DNA from: Vulcanimicrobiota bacterium
GTDB taxonomy: Bacteria > Vulcanimicrobiota > Vulcanimicrobiia > Vulcanimicrobiales > Vulcanimicrobiaceae
Length of the DNA: 64,000 nt
NCBI GenBank assembly: GCA_963714015.1
Contig: OY970223.1
Coordinates: forward strand, 3,072,001-3,136,000
Reading direction: 5' to 3'
Both the position numbers and the translations under genes were made by a program. Below, piece after piece: positions 55,916-63,317 of the stretch. Position 1 is the stretch's first letter. Each line of letters opens with the position of its first letter. The notes below the pieces were generated by a model. The model saw only the letters and a list, made by a program, of their open reading frames with translations. It was not told where the DNA came from and searched no databases.

Positions 55916-56068
55916 TTAAGCGGCGCGCGCCGGGCGCATCAAAACGACAGCAAAACCCCAGCCGCTTGCCAAACGAGTCCGGACCACGTATCCGCCGGAG
56001 ATTTTTTCATAGACATGGTAGCCTTCACGTAAGGCTTCCGATAGATTCGAAAAAACGACTATTCCCAT
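55916..56068 (-). CDS. small hypothetical protein (50 aa)
   Basis: MGIVVFSNLSEALREGYHVYEKISGGYVVRTRLASGWGFAVV: protein-like beta-rich pattern; fills the gap. Confidence 0.55.
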   Translation of the reverse strand: MGIVVFSNLSEALREGYHVYEKISGGYVVRTRLASGWGFAVVLMRPARAA

Positions 56069-58409
56069 GACTAAACGATATCGCGGGCGAGCCGAGGCCG
56101 GCACTTACACTGCGACAGTTACTCACACACTGCGAGCACGCAAGGCTTTCGGAGACGTCTTTGAGGACCGCATCCGCTATGCGGACGGCGTCTTCCATTT
56201 GCAGGCCGTTCCCCTCGTTCCAGATGGCCTCGCAGGTTTCGCGCGACAGCAGCGCCGTCGCGGCGGCCACAATCTGCGTGCGCTCCAGTTCCTGAGTGCG
56301 ACCTAGCGGCATACGCATCACTTTGCACGCCGACACCGCGGCCCCGCAAAGCTCCACGGCTTGCTTCGGCCGGTTCGCGTTCAGGCACAAGTGTGCGGCG
56401 GTGAGCAGCATCTGAGCCGTCAGCGGGCGCGCGCCCATCGCGTGGGCCAGCAGCAGCGATTCCTTGAGTGTCCCTGCGCATTCGCAAAGATCGCCTTGCG
56501 CGAGCCGTACTTCCGCGATCCCCTGCAACGCCCGTTGAATGCCGAGCGGGTGGCCGGTCTCGCGCGCCGTTTGCAGCGAACGCGCAAGCAGTTCGATCGC
56601 ATGCGGGAGCTCGCCCAATTCCAGGCGGCAGCGCGCTATGTTCGCGGCGATTAGACACTCGCTCCAAACGTCGCCTACTGCGCGCGCGCGGTTCAACGCC
56701 GGTTCAAAGTGCGCAAGTGCTTCCCGCGCCTTCCCTTCGCGCAGCAGCATTTCGCCGGAGTCAATTTCAGGCTGCGCCTGGGCTTCGTCGAAGCACCGGC
56801 GCGCAGCGTCAAAGTCACCCTCCGCTGCAGCAACCCGCCCGCACGCGACGAGCGCCGCGCGGCTCTCTTCGGGAAAGGACGGCCCGCAAGCTTGTGCCAA
56901 ACCGAGCGCCGTTTCCAATCGTGTCCGCGCTTCCCCGTAGGCGCCGGCGCGGTAGTAATACTCGAACAAATCGGAAGCTAGCAAGAGCGCCGTGCGGACG
57001 TCGCGCTTTTCGACGGTCCACGAAAACGCGCAGCGAAGATTCGTCATGTTCTCGCGTAACCGGCGCAGCCACGTCCGCTGCCCGCTGCCGCCCAGATGCG
57101 CGACCGCCTCCGCCGCGTATGCGGCGTACCAGCACGTATGCCGATCCCGCGCGAGCTGTGCGATTTGCGGATCCGCCACGACCCGCGATCCGAAGTCGCG
57201 AATGACGCCCAGCATTTCGAGCCGCGGTTCGCCTTCGCTCGAGAAAGCGCGCTTGAGCAGATTTTTGTCGGCGAGCGCTTCGAGGATGCCTTCCGTCTCG
57301 GCGCCGTCGCAGCCGCTGTCGGTACACGCCGCCAGCACTGCTTCGGCATGACACCCCGCCGGAAGCGACGCTACGCGTAAGAACGCCCGCCGTTCCTCCT
57401 CGCTGAGCGCATCGTAGCTCCACGCGATCGCCGCTTCCATGGTCGAATGGCGTTGTGCGCCGTCGCGATAGCCGTTCGTAAGGACCGTCAGCGGCGCACG
57501 CATACGGTCGCGCAGTTCCGAAAGCGAGATCTTTCCTAGACGCGCCGCTGCAAGCTCGATGGCGAGCGGCAACCCCTCGAGGCAATCCAAAACTTCGGCG
57601 AGCGCGGTTTGATTCTGCTCCGTGACCGAAAAGGTCCGATCGACGCGCTGCGCCGTCTGGACGAATAGCGCTTGTCCATCCGCGGCGGACAGCGGATCGA
57701 GTTGAAACAGCATCTCGCCGCGGACGTGCAGCGGTTCGCGGCTGGTAATGAGCACACTCAAATCGGGGCAGCGCAGGAGCAGATCGACGATGCGCGGGGC
57801 GGCCGCCAGCACGCGTTCAAAGTTGTCCAGCACCAAGAGCATGCGGCGCGGCTCGAGCGACTCCATTACCGCCGTCATCGCGTCGGGGACGGTGGAAACG
57901 TTGAGCGCGGCCGCTATGGCGGCCGGCAGATGTTCGGGCGCAACGACGTGCTCGAGTTCGATAAACTTGTGGCCATCGCAGCGGCGGCAATGCAGCTGCG
58001 TGCTTACCGCACGCGCCAGCGCGGTCTTTCCCACGCCGCCGGGCCCGACGATTGAGATTAAACGTTCGCCCGAAACCAGCGCATCGCACAGATCGCGCAC
58101 TTCGTCGTCCCGGCCGATCAGAGGACGCAGTTCCGCAACGCCGTTATGCACGCTCGCCAGCGACGCCAAACCGCGAACCCGCGGTTTTCCTTGTGCGGCA
58201 ATCTCAAACTCAGCGCGTTCGTCATCCGAGAGACCGAGCGCCGATGCTAAGCGCAAAACGGTGTCCTTGTAAGGACGCGAGCGAGCGCCGCGCTCGAGTG
58301 CGCTGATGGCCTGCACGCTCATGGCGGCGAGCTCCGCAAGCGCTTCCTGCGAGAGCCCCGCTCTAATCCGCCGTTCCTTGAGCAGCTCGGCGAACGTCGG
58401 AGAATGCAT
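56025..58409 (-). CDS. XRE-HTH / NB-ARC-like ATPase / TPR transcriptional regulator
   Basis: RAGLSQEALAE..ISALERG, GPGGVGKT, LLVLDNFE, TSRE, GLPLAIELAAAR and WSY motifs; TPR tail. Confidence 0.88.
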   Translation of the reverse strand: MHSPTFAELLKERRIRAGLSQEALAELAAMSVQAISALERGARSRPYKDTVLRLASALGLSDDERAEFEIAAQGKPRVRGLASLASVHNGVAELRPLIGRDDEVRDLCDALVSGERLISIVGPGGVGKTALARAVSTQLHCRRCDGHKFIELEHVVAPEHLPAAIAAALNVSTVPDAMTAVMESLEPRRMLLVLDNFERVLAAAPRIVDLLLRCPDLSVLITSREPLHVRGEMLFQLDPLSAADGQALFVQTAQRVDRTFSVTEQNQTALAEVLDCLEGLPLAIELAAARLGKISLSELRDRMRAPLTVLTNGYRDGAQRHSTMEAAIAWSYDALSEEERRAFLRVASLPAGCHAEAVLAACTDSGCDGAETEGILEALADKNLLKRAFSSEGEPRLEMLGVIRDFGSRVVADPQIAQLARDRHTCWYAAYAAEAVAHLGGSGQRTWLRRLRENMTNLRCAFSWTVEKRDVRTALLLASDLFEYYYRAGAYGEARTRLETALGLAQACGPSFPEESRAALVACGRVAAAEGDFDAARRCFDEAQAQPEIDSGEMLLREGKAREALAHFEPALNRARAVGDVWSECLIAANIARCRLELGELPHAIELLARSLQTARETGHPLGIQRALQGIAEVRLAQGDLCECAGTLKESLLLAHAMGARPLTAQMLLTAAHLCLNANRPKQAVELCGAAVSACKVMRMPLGRTQELERTQIVAAATALLSRETCEAIWNEGNGLQMEDAVRIADAVLKDVSESLACSQCVSNCRSVSAGLGSPAISFSHGNSRFFESIGSLT

Positions 58410-58975
58410 CAGCAAGCGTACGCGCGTAGGCGTTCGCGCGCAAAGTAGTGCTGATGATATTCCTCTGCCCGGTAGAAGGTCGCGGCCGGTTCGATCTCAG
58501 TCACGATCGGTCTACGGTACGTGCCCCCGGCGACCAGACGATCGCGTGAACTGACGGCGGCCCGGCGCTGCTCGGGCGAATGGATGAAGATGCGTGAGCG
58601 GTATTGCGGCCCGACGTCGTAGCCCTGGCGGTTTGCCGATGTCGGATCGTGGAGACGCCAGAAGCGTTCCAGCAGGTCGCCGTACGTCGTAACGAGCGGA
58701 TCGTACGTCAGCCGTACCACCTCGGCATGCCCGGTGTCTCCGGCACAGATGTCGCGGAAGGTCGGGTTCTCGAGTGAGCCGCCGCAGTAACCGACGGCCG
58801 TTTCGACGACACCCGGCAGAGCCGCGAATGCGGCCTCCAGCGTCCAAAAACAACCGCCGGCAAAGGTCGCCGTGGCCAAGTTCGCCGTGCCGAGATAAGC
58901 CCGTGAGGGGGGCGCCGTCCGCAGTTTTTCCGCCGCCCAAGCTACGTCGTCTTCAGTGATAGGCAGTGTGAGCAT
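58409..58975 (-). CDS. msrA: peptide-methionine (S)-S-oxide reductase
   Basis: [27 protein letters not shown] and FYRAEEYHQ motifs. Confidence 0.93.
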
Positions 58976-59149
58976 GCTCTAACGGTACTGCGGCGGGCGA
59001 TTCCGGAACAGGAAATTTCTCACATTTTGGTATCTGCCGGGTCCCTACACGCCAATGTGTGGGTGAAGTGTGCGGGTGTCGATGTTTGCCGAACCGCCGT
59101 TGTCCTAGGATGCCGTCATAACCCATCCTCCGCGAAAGGCAAAAGTTCA

Positions 59150-60259
59150 GTGAATCATCGTCTCCTGGCCGCAGCGACGGCCTCAGTTCTGGCGGCGCTC
59201 TCGATGGCCGCCTGCGGCGGCGGCTCTTCGGTTCCGGTCGTGAAGACGACCGCGGTTCCGACCACCACTCCCACCACCGCTCCCAAAGTCAACACTCAGG
59301 CATTGTGGGTCGCAAACGGCGCAAACGTCGTTGAGTTCGGCCCTTCACAGCTGACCGCCACGGTCGGCGATCCCATCCCGCAAGCCGCGATTAACAGCAC
59401 CGTCTTCGGCGCGCCTCAGGGCGTCCAATTCGATGCCAAGGGCGACCTGTGGGTCATAGACGGCGGCACAGTGGCAGCCGGAGGAACCATCGCCCCGGCG
59501 CTGTTCGAGTTCACCCCGCAGCAGCTTGCCCAGTTGCACACGAACGCCACGCCCGCTCCGGCCGCGACGATCCGTTTCAACGGCTTCGTCTTTCCGCAGC
59601 AAGGCGTGTTCGACAAGAACGGCAACTTTTGGGTGACGGATAACGGTGCGAATGCCGTCGACGTGTTCTCCCCCTCGGAACTGGCTGCGGGCGGCGCGAA
59701 CGTCGCGCCGATTGCATCCATCTCGGCCGGCTTTACCGGACCGCTCGGCATCGCCTTCGACGCGATGGGCGATCTGTTCGTCGCCAACAACGGCACGACC
59801 ACGATCTTCGGCTTCAAAGCGAGCAAGCTGCCCGCGAGCGGCAACGCGACGCTGACGCCGGACGTCACGCTCTCGGACGACGGGGCGGGTTCCATTCAGG
59901 GGCCGTGGGCATTGGTCTTCGATCAACGCGGCGATCTCTGGTCCAGCAACGCCAACGCGCCGTTCACACTCGTCGAGTTCAGCTCCTCACAGATCGCCGC
60001 ATCGGGTTCGCCGAGGCCGATCGTGACGCTCAGCCCGACCACCGTTCAAGCCAACTCAACGCTGAACGCGCCGAACGGCATCGCGTTCGACAGCATCGGC
60101 GACCTCGCCGCCATCAGCTCCGCAACGCCTTTCGGCGTCGCAGACTTCGGCTTCGCTCAACTCACCAGCAGCGCGGCGGTGCCTCCCACTGCGTTCATGG
60201 TTGGAACGACGACGACGCTCAACGCTCCGGCCGGCGACGTCTTCGGCGCGAGCTTCTAA
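59150..60259 (+). CDS. NHL-repeat lipoprotein
   Basis: Lipobox SMAAC-GGG; five or more P.G..FD..GDLW(V) repeats. Confidence 0.85.
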   Translation: MNHRLLAAATASVLAALSMAACGGGSSVPVVKTTAVPTTTPTTAPKVNTQALWVANGANVVEFGPSQLTATVGDPIPQAAINSTVFGAPQGVQFDAKGDLWVIDGGTVAAGGTIAPALFEFTPQQLAQLHTNATPAPAATIRFNGFVFPQQGVFDKNGNFWVTDNGANAVDVFSPSELAAGGANVAPIASISAGFTGPLGIAFDAMGDLFVANNGTTTIFGFKASKLPASGNATLTPDVTLSDDGAGSIQGPWALVFDQRGDLWSSNANAPFTLVEFSSSQIAASGSPRPIVTLSPTTVQANSTLNAPNGIAFDSIGDLAAISSATPFGVADFGFAQLTSSAAVPPTAFMVGTTTTLNAPAGDVFGASF

Positions 60260-60444: not shown

Positions 60445-62541
60445 TCACTTATGGGAAGCAATGATCTCCGCGTACGTTTTGCTGGCCTCCGTCGGAACGC
60501 GAGTCAGGTTCGGATCGCGATCGAGATCGATATGATAGAGTCCGAAATCGCTGCTGTCGTCGAACGGCAAGCCCCACTCGCGGTTGGAGGTGATGCTCCA
60601 GCAAAGATAGGCGACTACCGGAGAGCCGCGCTGCACCGCGCGATCGACTTGTGCGATGTGCGCCTCCAAGTAACGCGCGCGGGAAAAACCGTCCGCATTC
60701 GTGACGCAGCCGTTTTCGATTACGATGATCGGTTTGCCCGGAAACAACTCTTCCGTTTCACGCAGAATGTCGTCCAGAACGCTGGGCCACACCGGAGCCA
60801 TCGCATAGTGACATTCGGCGGCAGCTGAAAGCCGGTGCAATTCGTTCGGCCAGAACGAGGGGATTCCCCAGTAATAATCGACACCGGCAAAGTCGAGCGC
60901 GCCTACGCACTCCCGCGGACACAGAAACTCCGGCAGCCGGCCGGCCATGCCGAGGTTCCACCAATTCGTGCCCACCAGTGTCCCGAACATTCCAATCGAC
61001 TTGCGCAGTCCGTCGAAGACGTGCAGGGGCGAGCGCGTCGCGTTCAGCCGGCGGTTCCCCGTAACGGGAACGAATCGCACCGGCGCATGCTCCGATCCGA
61101 AGATCTCTGCGGCAATGCAGCGCGCCAAATCGGGTTCCATGCCGGAGTAGTTTCCGCGATCGTCGCACGCGCACAGTCCTTCGACGCCGGGGCGGACTCC
61201 GACGCGCAGAATACCCCGCTTGCGGATCGCTTCCAACGATCGATCCGGTTCGGGTCCGGCGAGGTCAGTGCTCGCCAGCGTGTTGCGGTTGTGTCCCTCG
61301 GGCAGCTCGGGATGACTCTTTTTGTACTTGCGCAGCGCGCGGTCTACGGCATCCAGCAGCGAGCGGCTACCCAGCGCGACGGCCACGCCGTAGGCATGCG
61401 GATGCGCCGGAATCAGCGAGATCGCGAACGGATCGGCTGAATATTGCCGCAGCATCACGTCGTCGTGAAACACGGCGTCGATCGTTCCCTCGCGCAGGGC
61501 CTGAACCGCCGCGTCGGTTTGCGCGTAATAGCGGACGTCAGCGGCGGTAAATATACCGCCGGACATCTCGGCCGCCGGCGTATCCTCCACAACGCCGGCG
61601 CGGCCTTTCCACTCCAGAAGATCCGCAGGCAGCGATGCTGCGGCGCGATGAAGCACCGCTAAGTGCACCAGCAGGTACGGCTCCGAAAAAAAGACTCGAT
61701 GCATCCGCTTCTGGGTCATGGTCAGCTGCGCGATGGAAATGTCCACTTGGCCGCTGTCGACGAAGCCGTGTTCCGCAAGCAGCTTTCCGCGCCGGCGAGC
61801 TTGCTCCGGCGACTTCAGATGCGTGGCATTGCGGTCGACCAGCCGCTGAAGCCAGCGCGGAAGACCGAGGACCAGCGGATTCGAGCCGACCAGTGCTTGC
61901 GGCTGTACGGCGCGGATCGCCTCACGCGCCCGCGCGTGCGCTCGGAACAGGTTCGGAATGAGCTGCAAAACGGCGTCCATCTGACGCTCGCCGGAAGCGC
62001 CCGGTTCCAGCCCCGGCGGCATGGGATAGGCCCGCATCCAAAAACCTTTGATGAAGCCGTAAACGAGTTGGCTCGGCTCGTTGAGAGTGACGTAATAGTC
62101 GATCAGATCGCCGAGCCGGCTCGCCACTTGTGATGCATAGGCGGCCATGCGCGCCGGAAAATGCGAATCGAGCAATCCGGCTCCGTTTCCCGCCGCCTGC
62201 ACGTGCAGCGGCCATGTATTGTGGTGCAGGGTGACGACAGTCATCATCTGCGCGTCGCGCATGTACTGAAGTACCTCGCGGTAATGCGCGAAAACGGATT
62301 CATCCCAGATGCCGGCTTCGGGCTCGAGCCGTGCCCAGGACAATGAAAGCCGGAAGGCCGAACAGCCTAGCCCCCTGGCGAGATCGACGTCTTCACGGTA
62401 GCGGTTCCAAAAATCGGTTGCCTTACCGCGCGGCGTGAGTCCGCGTACGCGTTCCCAAACGTCGCGCACGTCGTCTTGTCCGTTATAGGCTTCGCATTGG
62501 TGATCGGCGGTGGCCACGCCGAAGCGGTAGCGTTTCTGCAT
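60445..62541 (-). CDS. glycoside hydrolase family 1 with an inserted, circularly permuted family-3 solute-binding domain
   Basis: FGVATADHQCE, RYREDV, FRLSLSWARLEP, TLHH, TLNEP, IENG and WS..N.EW..FGL; ~240-aa SBP-like insert at about 61035-61760. Confidence 0.88.
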   Translation of the reverse strand: MQKRYRFGVATADHQCEAYNGQDDVRDVWERVRGLTPRGKATDFWNRYREDVDLARGLGCSAFRLSLSWARLEPEAGIWDESVFAHYREVLQYMRDAQMMTVVTLHHNTWPLHVQAAGNGAGLLDSHFPARMAAYASQVASRLGDLIDYYVTLNEPSQLVYGFIKGFWMRAYPMPPGLEPGASGERQMDAVLQLIPNLFRAHARAREAIRAVQPQALVGSNPLVLGLPRWLQRLVDRNATHLKSPEQARRRGKLLAEHGFVDSGQVDISIAQLTMTQKRMHRVFFSEPYLLVHLAVLHRAAASLPADLLEWKGRAGVVEDTPAAEMSGGIFTAADVRYYAQTDAAVQALREGTIDAVFHDDVMLRQYSADPFAISLIPAHPHAYGVAVALGSRSLLDAVDRALRKYKKSHPELPEGHNRNTLASTDLAGPEPDRSLEAIRKRGILRVGVRPGVEGLCACDDRGNYSGMEPDLARCIAAEIFGSEHAPVRFVPVTGNRRLNATRSPLHVFDGLRKSIGMFGTLVGTNWWNLGMAGRLPEFLCPRECVGALDFAGVDYYWGIPSFWPNELHRLSAAAECHYAMAPVWPSVLDDILRETEELFPGKPIIVIENGCVTNADGFSRARYLEAHIAQVDRAVQRGSPVVAYLCWSITSNREWGLPFDDSSDFGLYHIDLDRDPNLTRVPTEASKTYAEIIASHK

Positions 62542-62584
62542 GCGCAACGGATGTTCGCCGCCGAGCGCGAACCCCTCCGGCGCA

Positions 62585-63317
62585 ATGAGATTCAGCAACA
62601 AAACTTGCTTGGTAACGGGAGGCGGTTCCGGAATCGGTCGCGCAACGTGCGTGCGCATGGCTGCCGAAGGCGGAAACGTCGTTGTGGCCGACCTGCACCA
62701 ACAGGCGGCACAGGCAACCGCGGATCAGATTGGAGCCGCGGGCGGGCGCGCGATCGCGGTGGAGCTCGACGTAGGCAACTCCGCGCAGGTCCAAGCGGGC
62801 ATAGCGAAAGCGCTCGAGTCGTTCGGCTCGCTTGACGTCATCGTGAACGACGCCGCGATGATGACCTTTCAGCCGATCGTCGATCTGCCCGAAGCCGATT
62901 TTTTCCGCGTGATTACCACAAACTTAGGGTCGGTATTCTTCTTCGCCAAGTACGGTGTGCCGCATATGCCGCCCGGCTCCTCGATCGTCAACATCAGACT
63001 CCGTGCATGCCCACGAGACGACGGAGAACGTCGTTCCTTACGCGGCTTCAAAAGGCGCGATCGAGTCTTTTACTCGCGGCTTCAGCATCGAGATGGAGTC
63101 GCGGAAGATCCGCGTGAACAGCGTCGCTCCCGGAGCCGTCGATACGCCGATGCTCTGGAACAATCCCAACGTCAAGAGCGGCGCCGAGAAGATCGAAGGT
63201 GCAATCGGAAAACCCGAGGACCTCGCCGCGGCAATCTGCTTCATCGCCTCGGACGAAGCGCGCTTCGTCAATGGAACGACGCTGGTGGTCGACGGCGGCC
63301 GCCTGGATATTCTTTAG
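62585..63317 (+). CDS. SDR family oxidoreductase; frameshift near 62998
   Basis: TGGGSGIG, NDAA and IVNI, then (other frame) SVH...YAASK, IRVNSVAPG and VDGG. Confidence 0.88.

Follow-up and report, generated by a model that had tools for sequence, protein, structure and literature searches.

Ligand-controlled catalysts have been engineered by placing binding proteins inside enzymes, often with prior circular permutation. Two reports describe a xylose-stimulated chimera of a GH11 xylanase and a xylose-binding protein (PMC4896006), and biosensors made by domain insertion with periplasmic binding proteins (PBPs) (PMC6335823). The subject here is a single gene in a 64,000-nucleotide stretch of a soil bacterium of the Vulcanimicrobiota (contig OY970223.1 of assembly GCA_963714015.1, positions 3,072,001 to 3,136,000; this whole stretch is ‘the window’ below). 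Its product is a glycosidase of glycoside hydrolase family 1 (GH1) into which a solute-binding-protein (SBP) domain of family SBP_bac_3, circularly permuted, is inserted. A preliminary description of the gene, made from the DNA sequence, proposed this architecture and wondered whether the enzyme might be gated by a ligand. The architecture, as set out below, is virtually certain; the gating is plausible, with roughly three chances in ten of being right.

Both components have well-described relatives. With classical GH1 enzymes (4r27, 8znv/8znw, and Thermotoga maritima BglA, 1od0) the protein shares the (beta/alpha)8 fold, the NEP and ENG motifs, the glycone-binding Gln, His, Trp and Glu, and the lack of a signal peptide. 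It differs from them in overall sequence (about 30-35% identity), in carrying the SBP domain, about 240 amino acids (aa) long, within helix alpha5, and in the hallmarks of its own subfamily: DHQCEA, NWWxLGMAGxLPxFLCPxEC and CWSITSNREWG. With SBP_bac_3 proteins (GlnH 1wdn, AncQR 4zv1, PEB1a 2v25, SocA 5lom/5l9o, and 4z9n) the insert shares a two-lobed type II (Venus-flytrap) fold, the carboxylate-binding Arg of TxTxxR, the Asp that follows DAVxx, and an FSxPY motif. Unlike the periplasmic SBPs, it is permuted, with its first residues near helix 2 / strand 3 and its last ones past strand 2; it lacks a signal peptide, has no ATP-binding cassette (ABC) partner genes nearby and is embedded in an enzyme; moreover, its lobe-2 contacts and its equivalents of GlnH D10 and F13 are not conserved.

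Three further systems join a flytrap to another module. In the engineered PBP switches, a flytrap and an enzyme or reporter are coupled within one chain by domain insertion, with or without circular permutation; those proteins are man-made and mostly place a reporter in the PBP, whereas here a permuted PBP, natural and anciently conserved, lies in an enzyme and the coupling is putative. MltF likewise combines an SBP_bac_3-like module with a glycan-cleaving domain, and its module gives a weak profile match to residues 261-321 of the window protein; however, MltF is an end-to-end fusion with an unpermuted module, is periplasmic and has another catalytic fold. Ionotropic glutamate receptors and GluR0 (1iiw, Z 12.5 against the insert) also hold a flytrap in one chain with another functional module; in them the flytrap is the host, interrupted by the channel and mechanically coupled to it, whereas in the window protein the permuted flytrap is the guest and the enzyme the host. 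A search of the full-text literature, subscription-only papers and the architecture tables of CAZy and InterPro aside, turned up only engineered chimeras of a PBP with an enzyme or a reporter and no natural GH1-SBP protein; one paper containing both Pfam names lists Glyco_hydro_1 and SBP_bac_3 separately in a table. The sequences themselves are already public: NCBI calls them ‘family 1 glycosylhydrolase’, a name that hides the SBP architecture, and IMG joins ‘beta-glucosidase...’ to ‘ABC-type amino acid transport substrate-binding’. The permuted-insertion architecture appears to be undescribed.

A permuted flytrap inside a GH1 barrel

The GH1 part is complete, in two pieces. Pfam Glyco_hydro_1 (PF00232) scores 139 bits against a cut-off of 22.6, over two stretches, of which the best pairs residues 4-220 with profile positions 8-218; in a profile search of the genome, the halves match positions 7-218 and 336-452 of 453 within one open frame. 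Both catalytic motifs are intact, as the preliminary description had it: TLNEP, with the acid/base Glu, and IENG, with the nucleophile Glu, align with the equivalent motifs of the solved GH1 4r27, and N154, E155, P156, E609, N610 and G611 are invariant (44/44 sequences). N154, E155 and E609, together with Q15, H107, Y557, W648 and E655, remain so once SBP-less sisters and classical GH1s are added to the comparison. In a Foldseek search with the model of the whole protein, the top matches are all GH1 (probability 1.00; template modelling score 0.56-0.66, normalised to the target). The equivalog profile for BGL, NCBIfam TIGR03356, is not reached (156.7 bits against a cut-off of 478.5), so that the name ‘ordinary beta-glucosidase’ is not warranted; judged from its sequence, the protein is a catalytically complete retaining GH1 beta-glycosidase, cytoplasmic and of a distinct subfamily.

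Members of this subfamily, with or without the SBP, share cysteines that classical GH1s lack, at residues 16, 60, 541, 545, 612 and 647 of the window protein (P0001). Three adjoin active-site motifs (DHQ-C-EA, ENG-C and L-C-WS), and the LCPxEC pair lies in an extra segment ahead of strand 6. These cysteines could form a redox or metal site.

Between TLNEP and IENG lies the SBP_bac_3 insert, and its parts are in swapped order, as the preliminary description had claimed (Table 1). Pfam SBP_bac_3 (PF00497) scores 46.5 bits against a cut-off of 26.4, again in two stretches; here it is the order of the segments that is reversed, the canonical N-to-C succession being absent. Positions 80-237 of the NCBIfam LAO and GlnH profiles match residues 262-408, and positions 27-92 of the PEB1 profile match residues 432-497. 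The same division is seen in phmmer searches of the PDB: residues 261-405 correspond to SocA 88-234 (E 1.7e-11), and residues 436-501 to the N-terminal residues 12-76 of SBP 4z9n (E 1.3e-7). The first piece carries AQLTMTQKR in its lobe-1 strand; between the two pieces runs a linker of variable length (about 10 to 80 aa across homologues), which is the least conserved region (0.47).

Table 1. Features of the GH1-SBP gene and its neighbours (coordinates are those of the window; residues are those of the 698-aa protein)
Feature	Coordinates	Strand	Residues	Content
Whole gene	60445..62541	(-)		698 codons and stop (60445-60447)
GH1 N-terminal part	61810..62541	(-)	1-244	Strands 1-5 and first half of helix alpha5
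TLNEP motif	62074-62088	(-)	152-156	Acid/base E155 at 62077-62079
Outgoing connector helix	61768..61809	(-)	245-258	Helix 245-256 in whole-protein model
SBP piece A	61312..61767	(-)	259-410	SBP positions ~80-237; lobe-1 strand 3, lobe 2 (about residues 300-385), C-terminal helix
Ligand Arg	61705-61707	(-)	279	R279 of TxTxxR
Ligand Asp	61462-61464	(-)	360	D360 of DAVFHD
Variable linker	61246..61311	(-)	411-432	Joins former SBP C- and N-termini
SBP piece B	61051..61245	(-)	433-497	SBP positions ~12-92; lobe-1 strand 1, helix 1, strand 2
Return connector	60976..61050	(-)	498-522	Near-invariant R498, T502, R503, S504, T521
GH1 C-terminal part	60448..60975	(-)	523-698	Second half of alpha5 (TNWWNLG), strands 6-8; LCPxEC and CWSITSNREWG motifs
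IENG motif	60709-60720	(-)	608-611	Nucleophile E609 at 60715-60717
Subfamily cysteines	about 60601-62496	(-)	16, 60, 541, 545, 612, 647
SDR gene, N- and C-terminal parts	62540-63317	(+)		Split by a frameshift
NHL-repeat lipoprotein gene	59027-60259
msrA	58409-58975
STAND-type regulator	56025-58415	(-)		796 aa

Structure prediction supports one barrel and one flytrap in a single chain. The AlphaFold2 model of the whole protein has a mean predicted local distance difference test score (pLDDT) of 81 and a predicted template modelling score (pTM) of 0.78, with values below 50 only at linker residues 420-430 and in some GH1 loops. Folded alone (residues 243-524, with an alignment of 45 homologous inserts), the insert reaches pLDDT 82.4 and pTM 0.78, pieces A and B each exceeding 90, and the models show the two-lobed type II periplasmic-binding-protein fold. 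VIA-align places the insert model with amino-acid-type SBPs (Z 14.3-12; root-mean-square deviation (rmsd) 1.9-3.4 over about 150 aa), SocA 5lom being the best match (Z 14.3, rmsd 2.2, 153 aa); only model residues ~20-175 of 220 align, every time to the C-terminal two-thirds of the SBP. Foldseek behaves similarly (probability 1.00): single SBPs align over about 150-190 columns, and tandem SBPs give the longest alignments, with 264-268 columns (4q0c, the periplasmic domain of BvgS, and 6h30, SBD1-SBD2 of GlnPQ). Alignment of the whole insert to tandem SBPs is the expected signature of a circular permutation. A look-up of the insert in the ESM Atlas returned only generic SBP_bac_3 clusters, at a score of 0.85, which is under the counting level.

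The insert falls after strand 5 (residues 217-225) and before strand 6 (552-557), and alignment with SBP-less sisters and short classical GH1s puts the insertion point in the middle of the classical helix alpha5. In the whole-protein model, one helix (245-256) leaves the barrel and another (505-520) returns to it; both have lower pLDDT in the model of the insert without the barrel, and therefore they probably pack on the GH1 part. The chain enters the SBP immediately ahead of lobe-1 strand 3 and exits just past strand 2. By the ungapped motif register, the exit loop is at the position of GlnH F50, a residue that lines the ligand pocket; the enzyme is therefore attached beside the SBP cleft.

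Two other readings of the layout were considered and discarded. An SBP that hosts an inserted GH1 was set aside, as both termini of the protein are GH1; so were two unrelated half-SBPs, rather than one domain, given the confidence with which the two pieces are modelled and the pTM of the insert.

Spread and origin of the insertion

A chimeric assembly, or mis-joined genes with no such protein in the cell, was considered as a rival. The neighbouring gene for a short-chain dehydrogenase/reductase (SDR) is frameshifted, so the assembly or the genome is not error-free. Public contigs that fall on the glycosidase gene come from three soil-metagenome runs of one study, short and of low depth, with no RNA listed: one covers 61214-61678 (piece A, linker and piece B), another 61028-61308 (linker, piece B and return connector), and none from the three runs spans the junction of the N-terminal GH1 part with the SBP. 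As these runs may be the source sample, they are not counted as independent support. Against an artefact stand the homologues: the full layout, uninterrupted, recurs in more than 130 full-length proteins from independent assemblies, many studies and several phyla, so that the conserved architecture sought by the preliminary description is found. In addition, both domains are under purifying selection in frame, and the one-chain model is confident. An artefact is vanishingly improbable on this evidence and can be regarded as refuted for practical purposes.

The best 120 homologues listed are 57-80% identical over the aligned part, 622-772 aa long, stem from many sources, and all contain PF00232 and PF00497. 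A further 17 full-length clusters (35-52% identity, every segment covered) emerged from a scan of all 1.84 billion cluster representatives. Contigs of one genome per species contain 376 relatives; of the best 80, nearly all bear the label Eremiobacterota or Vulcanimicrobiota. Within an evenly drawn sample of the phylum, which takes in three unpublished genomes (G230, G178 and G275), 102 of 301 genomes give a match (E <= 1e-50); matches occur in 96 of 206 genomes of one family and in 51 of 59 of one genus. Deeper clusters are named Verrucomicrobiota (MES2983220.1) and Thermoflexales (CAG0936838.1), and one close match is named Binatia.

Some Eremiobacterota genomes hold two or three GH1-SBP copies, 54-63% identical to the query, which points to duplication within the genome (L031 and L083, on two contigs of one metagenome-assembled genome; also G125, G182, G173 and G174). 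The genome of the window has a second GH1 gene (G000:C1:846015-847043 (+), locus L002, a 482-aa open frame), whose match is continuous over Pfam profile positions 50-419 and which therefore appears to lack an SBP insert. P0124, a distant homologue of 771 aa with the full architecture, begins with a hydrophobic segment followed by a basic run, a candidate membrane anchor that may hold the enzyme on the cytoplasmic side.

The history of the insertion was approached with a tree of the GH1 columns alone (410 columns, 45 rows, IQ-TREE in quick mode, LG+C20), from which 12 near-duplicate rows of the close clade were omitted (P0003, 6, 11, 17, 24, 26, 31, 64, 88, 96, 97 and 120); a FastTree version was built from all 57 rows. 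The GH1 subfamily is set apart from classical GH1 with approximate likelihood-ratio support (SH-aLRT) of 99. On the best tree, presence and absence of the SBP take three changes; the six SBP-less rows are not one clade, and well-supported branches force at least two groups of them. In one SBP-less protein, P0141, part of SBP strand 2 persists at the junction, which points to secondary loss. Deletion of lobe 2 alone arose at least twice, in P0140 and in P0096/P0104/P0113, and removes exactly the segment between the two hinge crossings. The corresponding genome matches, split into 4-291 and 383-696, are found in five of the seven matching g25 genomes (G122, G152, G178, G181 and G242), in both matching g59 genomes (G055 and G151), and in G235. 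Relatives without the SBP or without lobe 2 keep their GH1 parts intact.

Most likely, then, there was a single insertion at the base of the distinct GH1 subfamily, later trimmed or lost in several lineages. Given the identical site and permutation, one gain with several losses is the parsimonious account, though the basal branches of the tree set no firm order of events. The permutation suggests a tandem SBP gene as the source: the captured stretch would have run across the junction of two domains and so contained the last two-thirds of one, the connection between them, and the first third of the next. The variable linker would be the old inter-domain or terminal connection.

What the binding domain might do

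Selection was gauged by dN/dS (omega; Nei-Gojobori method, NG86) in 25 non-overlapping pairs, 79-98% identical, drawn from 61 orthologues (the window gene and 60 loci). Median omega is 0.077 for GH1, 0.158 for lobe 1, 0.181 for lobe 2 and 0.105 for the stalk: the insert, with values about double those of the enzyme, is more relaxed but clearly under purifying selection.

The pocket was compared with that of GlnH, of which we take R75, T70, D157, T118/G119, D10, F13 and F50 to be the residues in contact with the amino acid. Counts refer to 134 full-length homologues (137 candidates less three that lack lobe 2, which a length filter of 660-800 aa removed). The ligand Arg and Asp are retained in the window protein, as first described: R279 aligns with GlnH R75 and D360 with D157, the wording DAVFHD being particular to this protein and DAVFDDD the family consensus. 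Within the insert, conservation is highest at the cleft positions of lobe 1: Arg at 279 in 132 homologues, Thr at 274 (GlnH T70) in 113 with Ser in 8, and Gln at 272 (G68) in 122, while A271, T276 and R498 are also kept (130, 131 and 132). Elsewhere in lobe 1, a family-specific H/R-P-G-V-x-G-L-C motif takes the place of the usual residues; in it, C457 is present in 122; the residue at GlnH D10 is here P451 (Pro in 118), and that at F13 is E454, which is variable. Position 360 is Asp in 101, Gln in 16 and Leu in 8, and position 359, His in the window protein as in GlnH (H156), is Asp in 114 and His in 2. Conservation drops at V318 (K115; Val in 78), T321 (T118; Thr in 36) and P322 (G119; Pro in 52, Leu in 39). 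Read at the level of sequence, the lobe-1 half of an amino-acid/carboxylate site is kept very well, and the lobe-2 half is not.

The account preferred here makes the SBP domain an accessory regulatory sensor, outside the catalytic core. The flytrap would still bind a carboxylate-bearing small molecule, for example an amino acid or a conjugate of one, with lobe 1 making most of the contacts (R279, T274/T276 and, in the majority of members, D360); the two chain connections leave the SBP at the cleft-lining strand 2 / helix 2 loop and run straight into alpha5; ligand occupancy or closure could thereby pass to the barrel and tune glycosidase activity. The protein would be a natural, anciently conserved allosteric switch, in which the ligand of the flytrap gates sugar release via a two-helix stalk and alpha5, and the relatives lacking lobe 2 or the whole SBP would be natural ‘constitutive’ versions of the enzyme. 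We put the mechanism at a probability of about 0.3, and the switch, tentatively, at the same level. In its favor are the purifying selection on both lobes and the near-invariance of R279; on such sequence evidence the domain is likely to be a functional, probably ligand-binding module.

Several observations weigh against ligand modulation. The lobe-2 contacts are poorly kept, as the counts at T321, P322 and V318 attest, and Pro or Leu in the place of GlnH G119 argues against a GlnH-like binding mode; the equivalents of D10 and F13 are a proline and a variable residue; D360 is replaced in 33 of the 134, in 29 of those by Gln, Leu, Ile, Ala or Gly. Lobe 2 alone, or the SBP as a whole, has been lost repeatedly from otherwise intact enzymes, and whole genera carry lobe-2-less forms that cannot close, so that the clamshell is dispensable there. 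The conserved face of lobe 1 could be an interface with the GH1 body. In none of 80 loci does a neighbour gene point to nitrogen or amino-acid metabolism; glutamine or glutamate as ligand, and with it the role in sensing nitrogen status that the preliminary description had in mind, draws its support from family resemblance and is pure conjecture.

That last possibility for the lobe-1 face leads to a different account, in which the domain has no small-molecule ligand and serves oligomerisation, stability or protein docking, with the former pocket residues forming an interface. It would explain why lineages without lobe 2 still keep lobe 1 under selection, why the lobe-2 ligand positions are not conserved, and why the D10/F13 equivalents have given way to the family-specific motif; SBP-like domains without a transport role do exist, the non-catalytic module of MltF being an example (a weak profile match). 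A pure spacer, however, would not need a lobe 2 that is under purifying selection wherever it is present. Moreover R279, T274/T276 and, mostly, D360 make up the canonical amino-acid triad and are kept far better than the remainder of the insert, and the insert model superposes best on closed, liganded SBPs (rmsd 1.9-2.2). We hold this structural role to be rather unlikely.

Slightly less probable still is that the domain recognizes substrate: its cleft, near subsites +1/+2, would bind the aglycone or second moiety of a substrate, perhaps a beta-glycoside with an amino-acid or carboxylate part, and would set specificity rather than regulate. The aglycone site of GH1 enzymes is built by barrel loops at the C-terminal ends of the strands, and the insert does come after strand 5. 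Its closest solved relative, by sequence and by structure, is SocA, which binds sugar-amino-acid conjugates (deoxyfructosyl-glutamine and glucopine); R279 would suit a substrate carboxylate, and lineages that have lost the SBP would simply have switched to another substrate. Yet the lead of SocA is marginal (Z 14.3 against 14.0-13.0; E 1.7e-11 against 9e-11), mid-alpha5 is at the side of the barrel and not in a loop of its catalytic face, and no candidate substrate is known, the neighbourhood offering no pathway in 80 loci. Ligand modulation, aglycone recognition and a ligand-free structural role come out nearly equal.

If ligand modulation were true, evolution would have reached the engineers’ solution by itself. 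The family would offer a ready scaffold, with natural deletion variants as controls, for the study of coupling between flytrap closure and a TIM barrel, and would hint at a regulatory or substrate logic not known before in Eremiobacterota, a soil phylum that is abundant but has hardly been cultured. Without gating, the protein is still a clean natural circular permutation, apparently made by capture across a tandem-domain junction, and an example of a cytoplasmic SBP_bac_3 domain. The GH1-SBP family is, in either case, a natural and testable counterpart of the engineered switches, with built-in deletion controls.

Gene boundaries and neighbouring genes

The genome is a single contig of 3.56 Mb. 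Counted from the first ATG of the open reading frame, the gene would run 60445..62658 (-) and encode 737 aa, the in-frame ATG at 62658 adding 39 aa; the start at 62541 gives the 698-aa protein used here. In an alignment of P0001 with 43 homologues, the GH1 N-terminus of most rows shown coincides with 62541. That start is the supported one by this comparison, and the longer one is possible. No clear ribosome-binding site was seen ahead of either start codon, and a scan for promoters and terminators gave nothing above shuffled expectation. The preliminary description was right about an uninterrupted frame of 698 aa without a signal peptide: the frame is open throughout, no signal-peptide-like stretch can be read at the N-terminus, and GH1 strand 1 begins at residue 5. 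Its coordinates for all the parts were right to within a few bases.

The gene stands alone, with the SDR gene divergent upstream and a gene for an NHL-repeat lipoprotein convergent downstream. Among 565 open reading frames at 80 loci there is no conserved operon or functional hint: the commonest neighbour families occur at 11 loci or fewer (SDR 11, an unnamed family 8, NHL-repeat 7). Transporter genes are absent from the conserved neighbours at these loci and from the surroundings of the window gene. About 2 kilobases downstream of the glycosidase gene, beyond the lipoprotein gene and msrA, lies the STAND-type (signal transduction ATPase with numerous domains) regulator, with HTH_31/XRE, NB-ARC/AAA_16 and TPR_12 domains; no evidence ties it to the GH1 gene.

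The SDR gene upstream is split by its frameshift into an N-terminal part (adh_short 1-134) in the frame from 62540 and a C-terminal part (136-190) in the frame from 62955. The cause is seemingly a single surplus base near 62998, judged by the second frame, and outside any homopolymer. The split gene may be a pseudogene or a sequencing error; relatives have an intact SDR of 259 aa at the equivalent position (for example L034:3207-3986).

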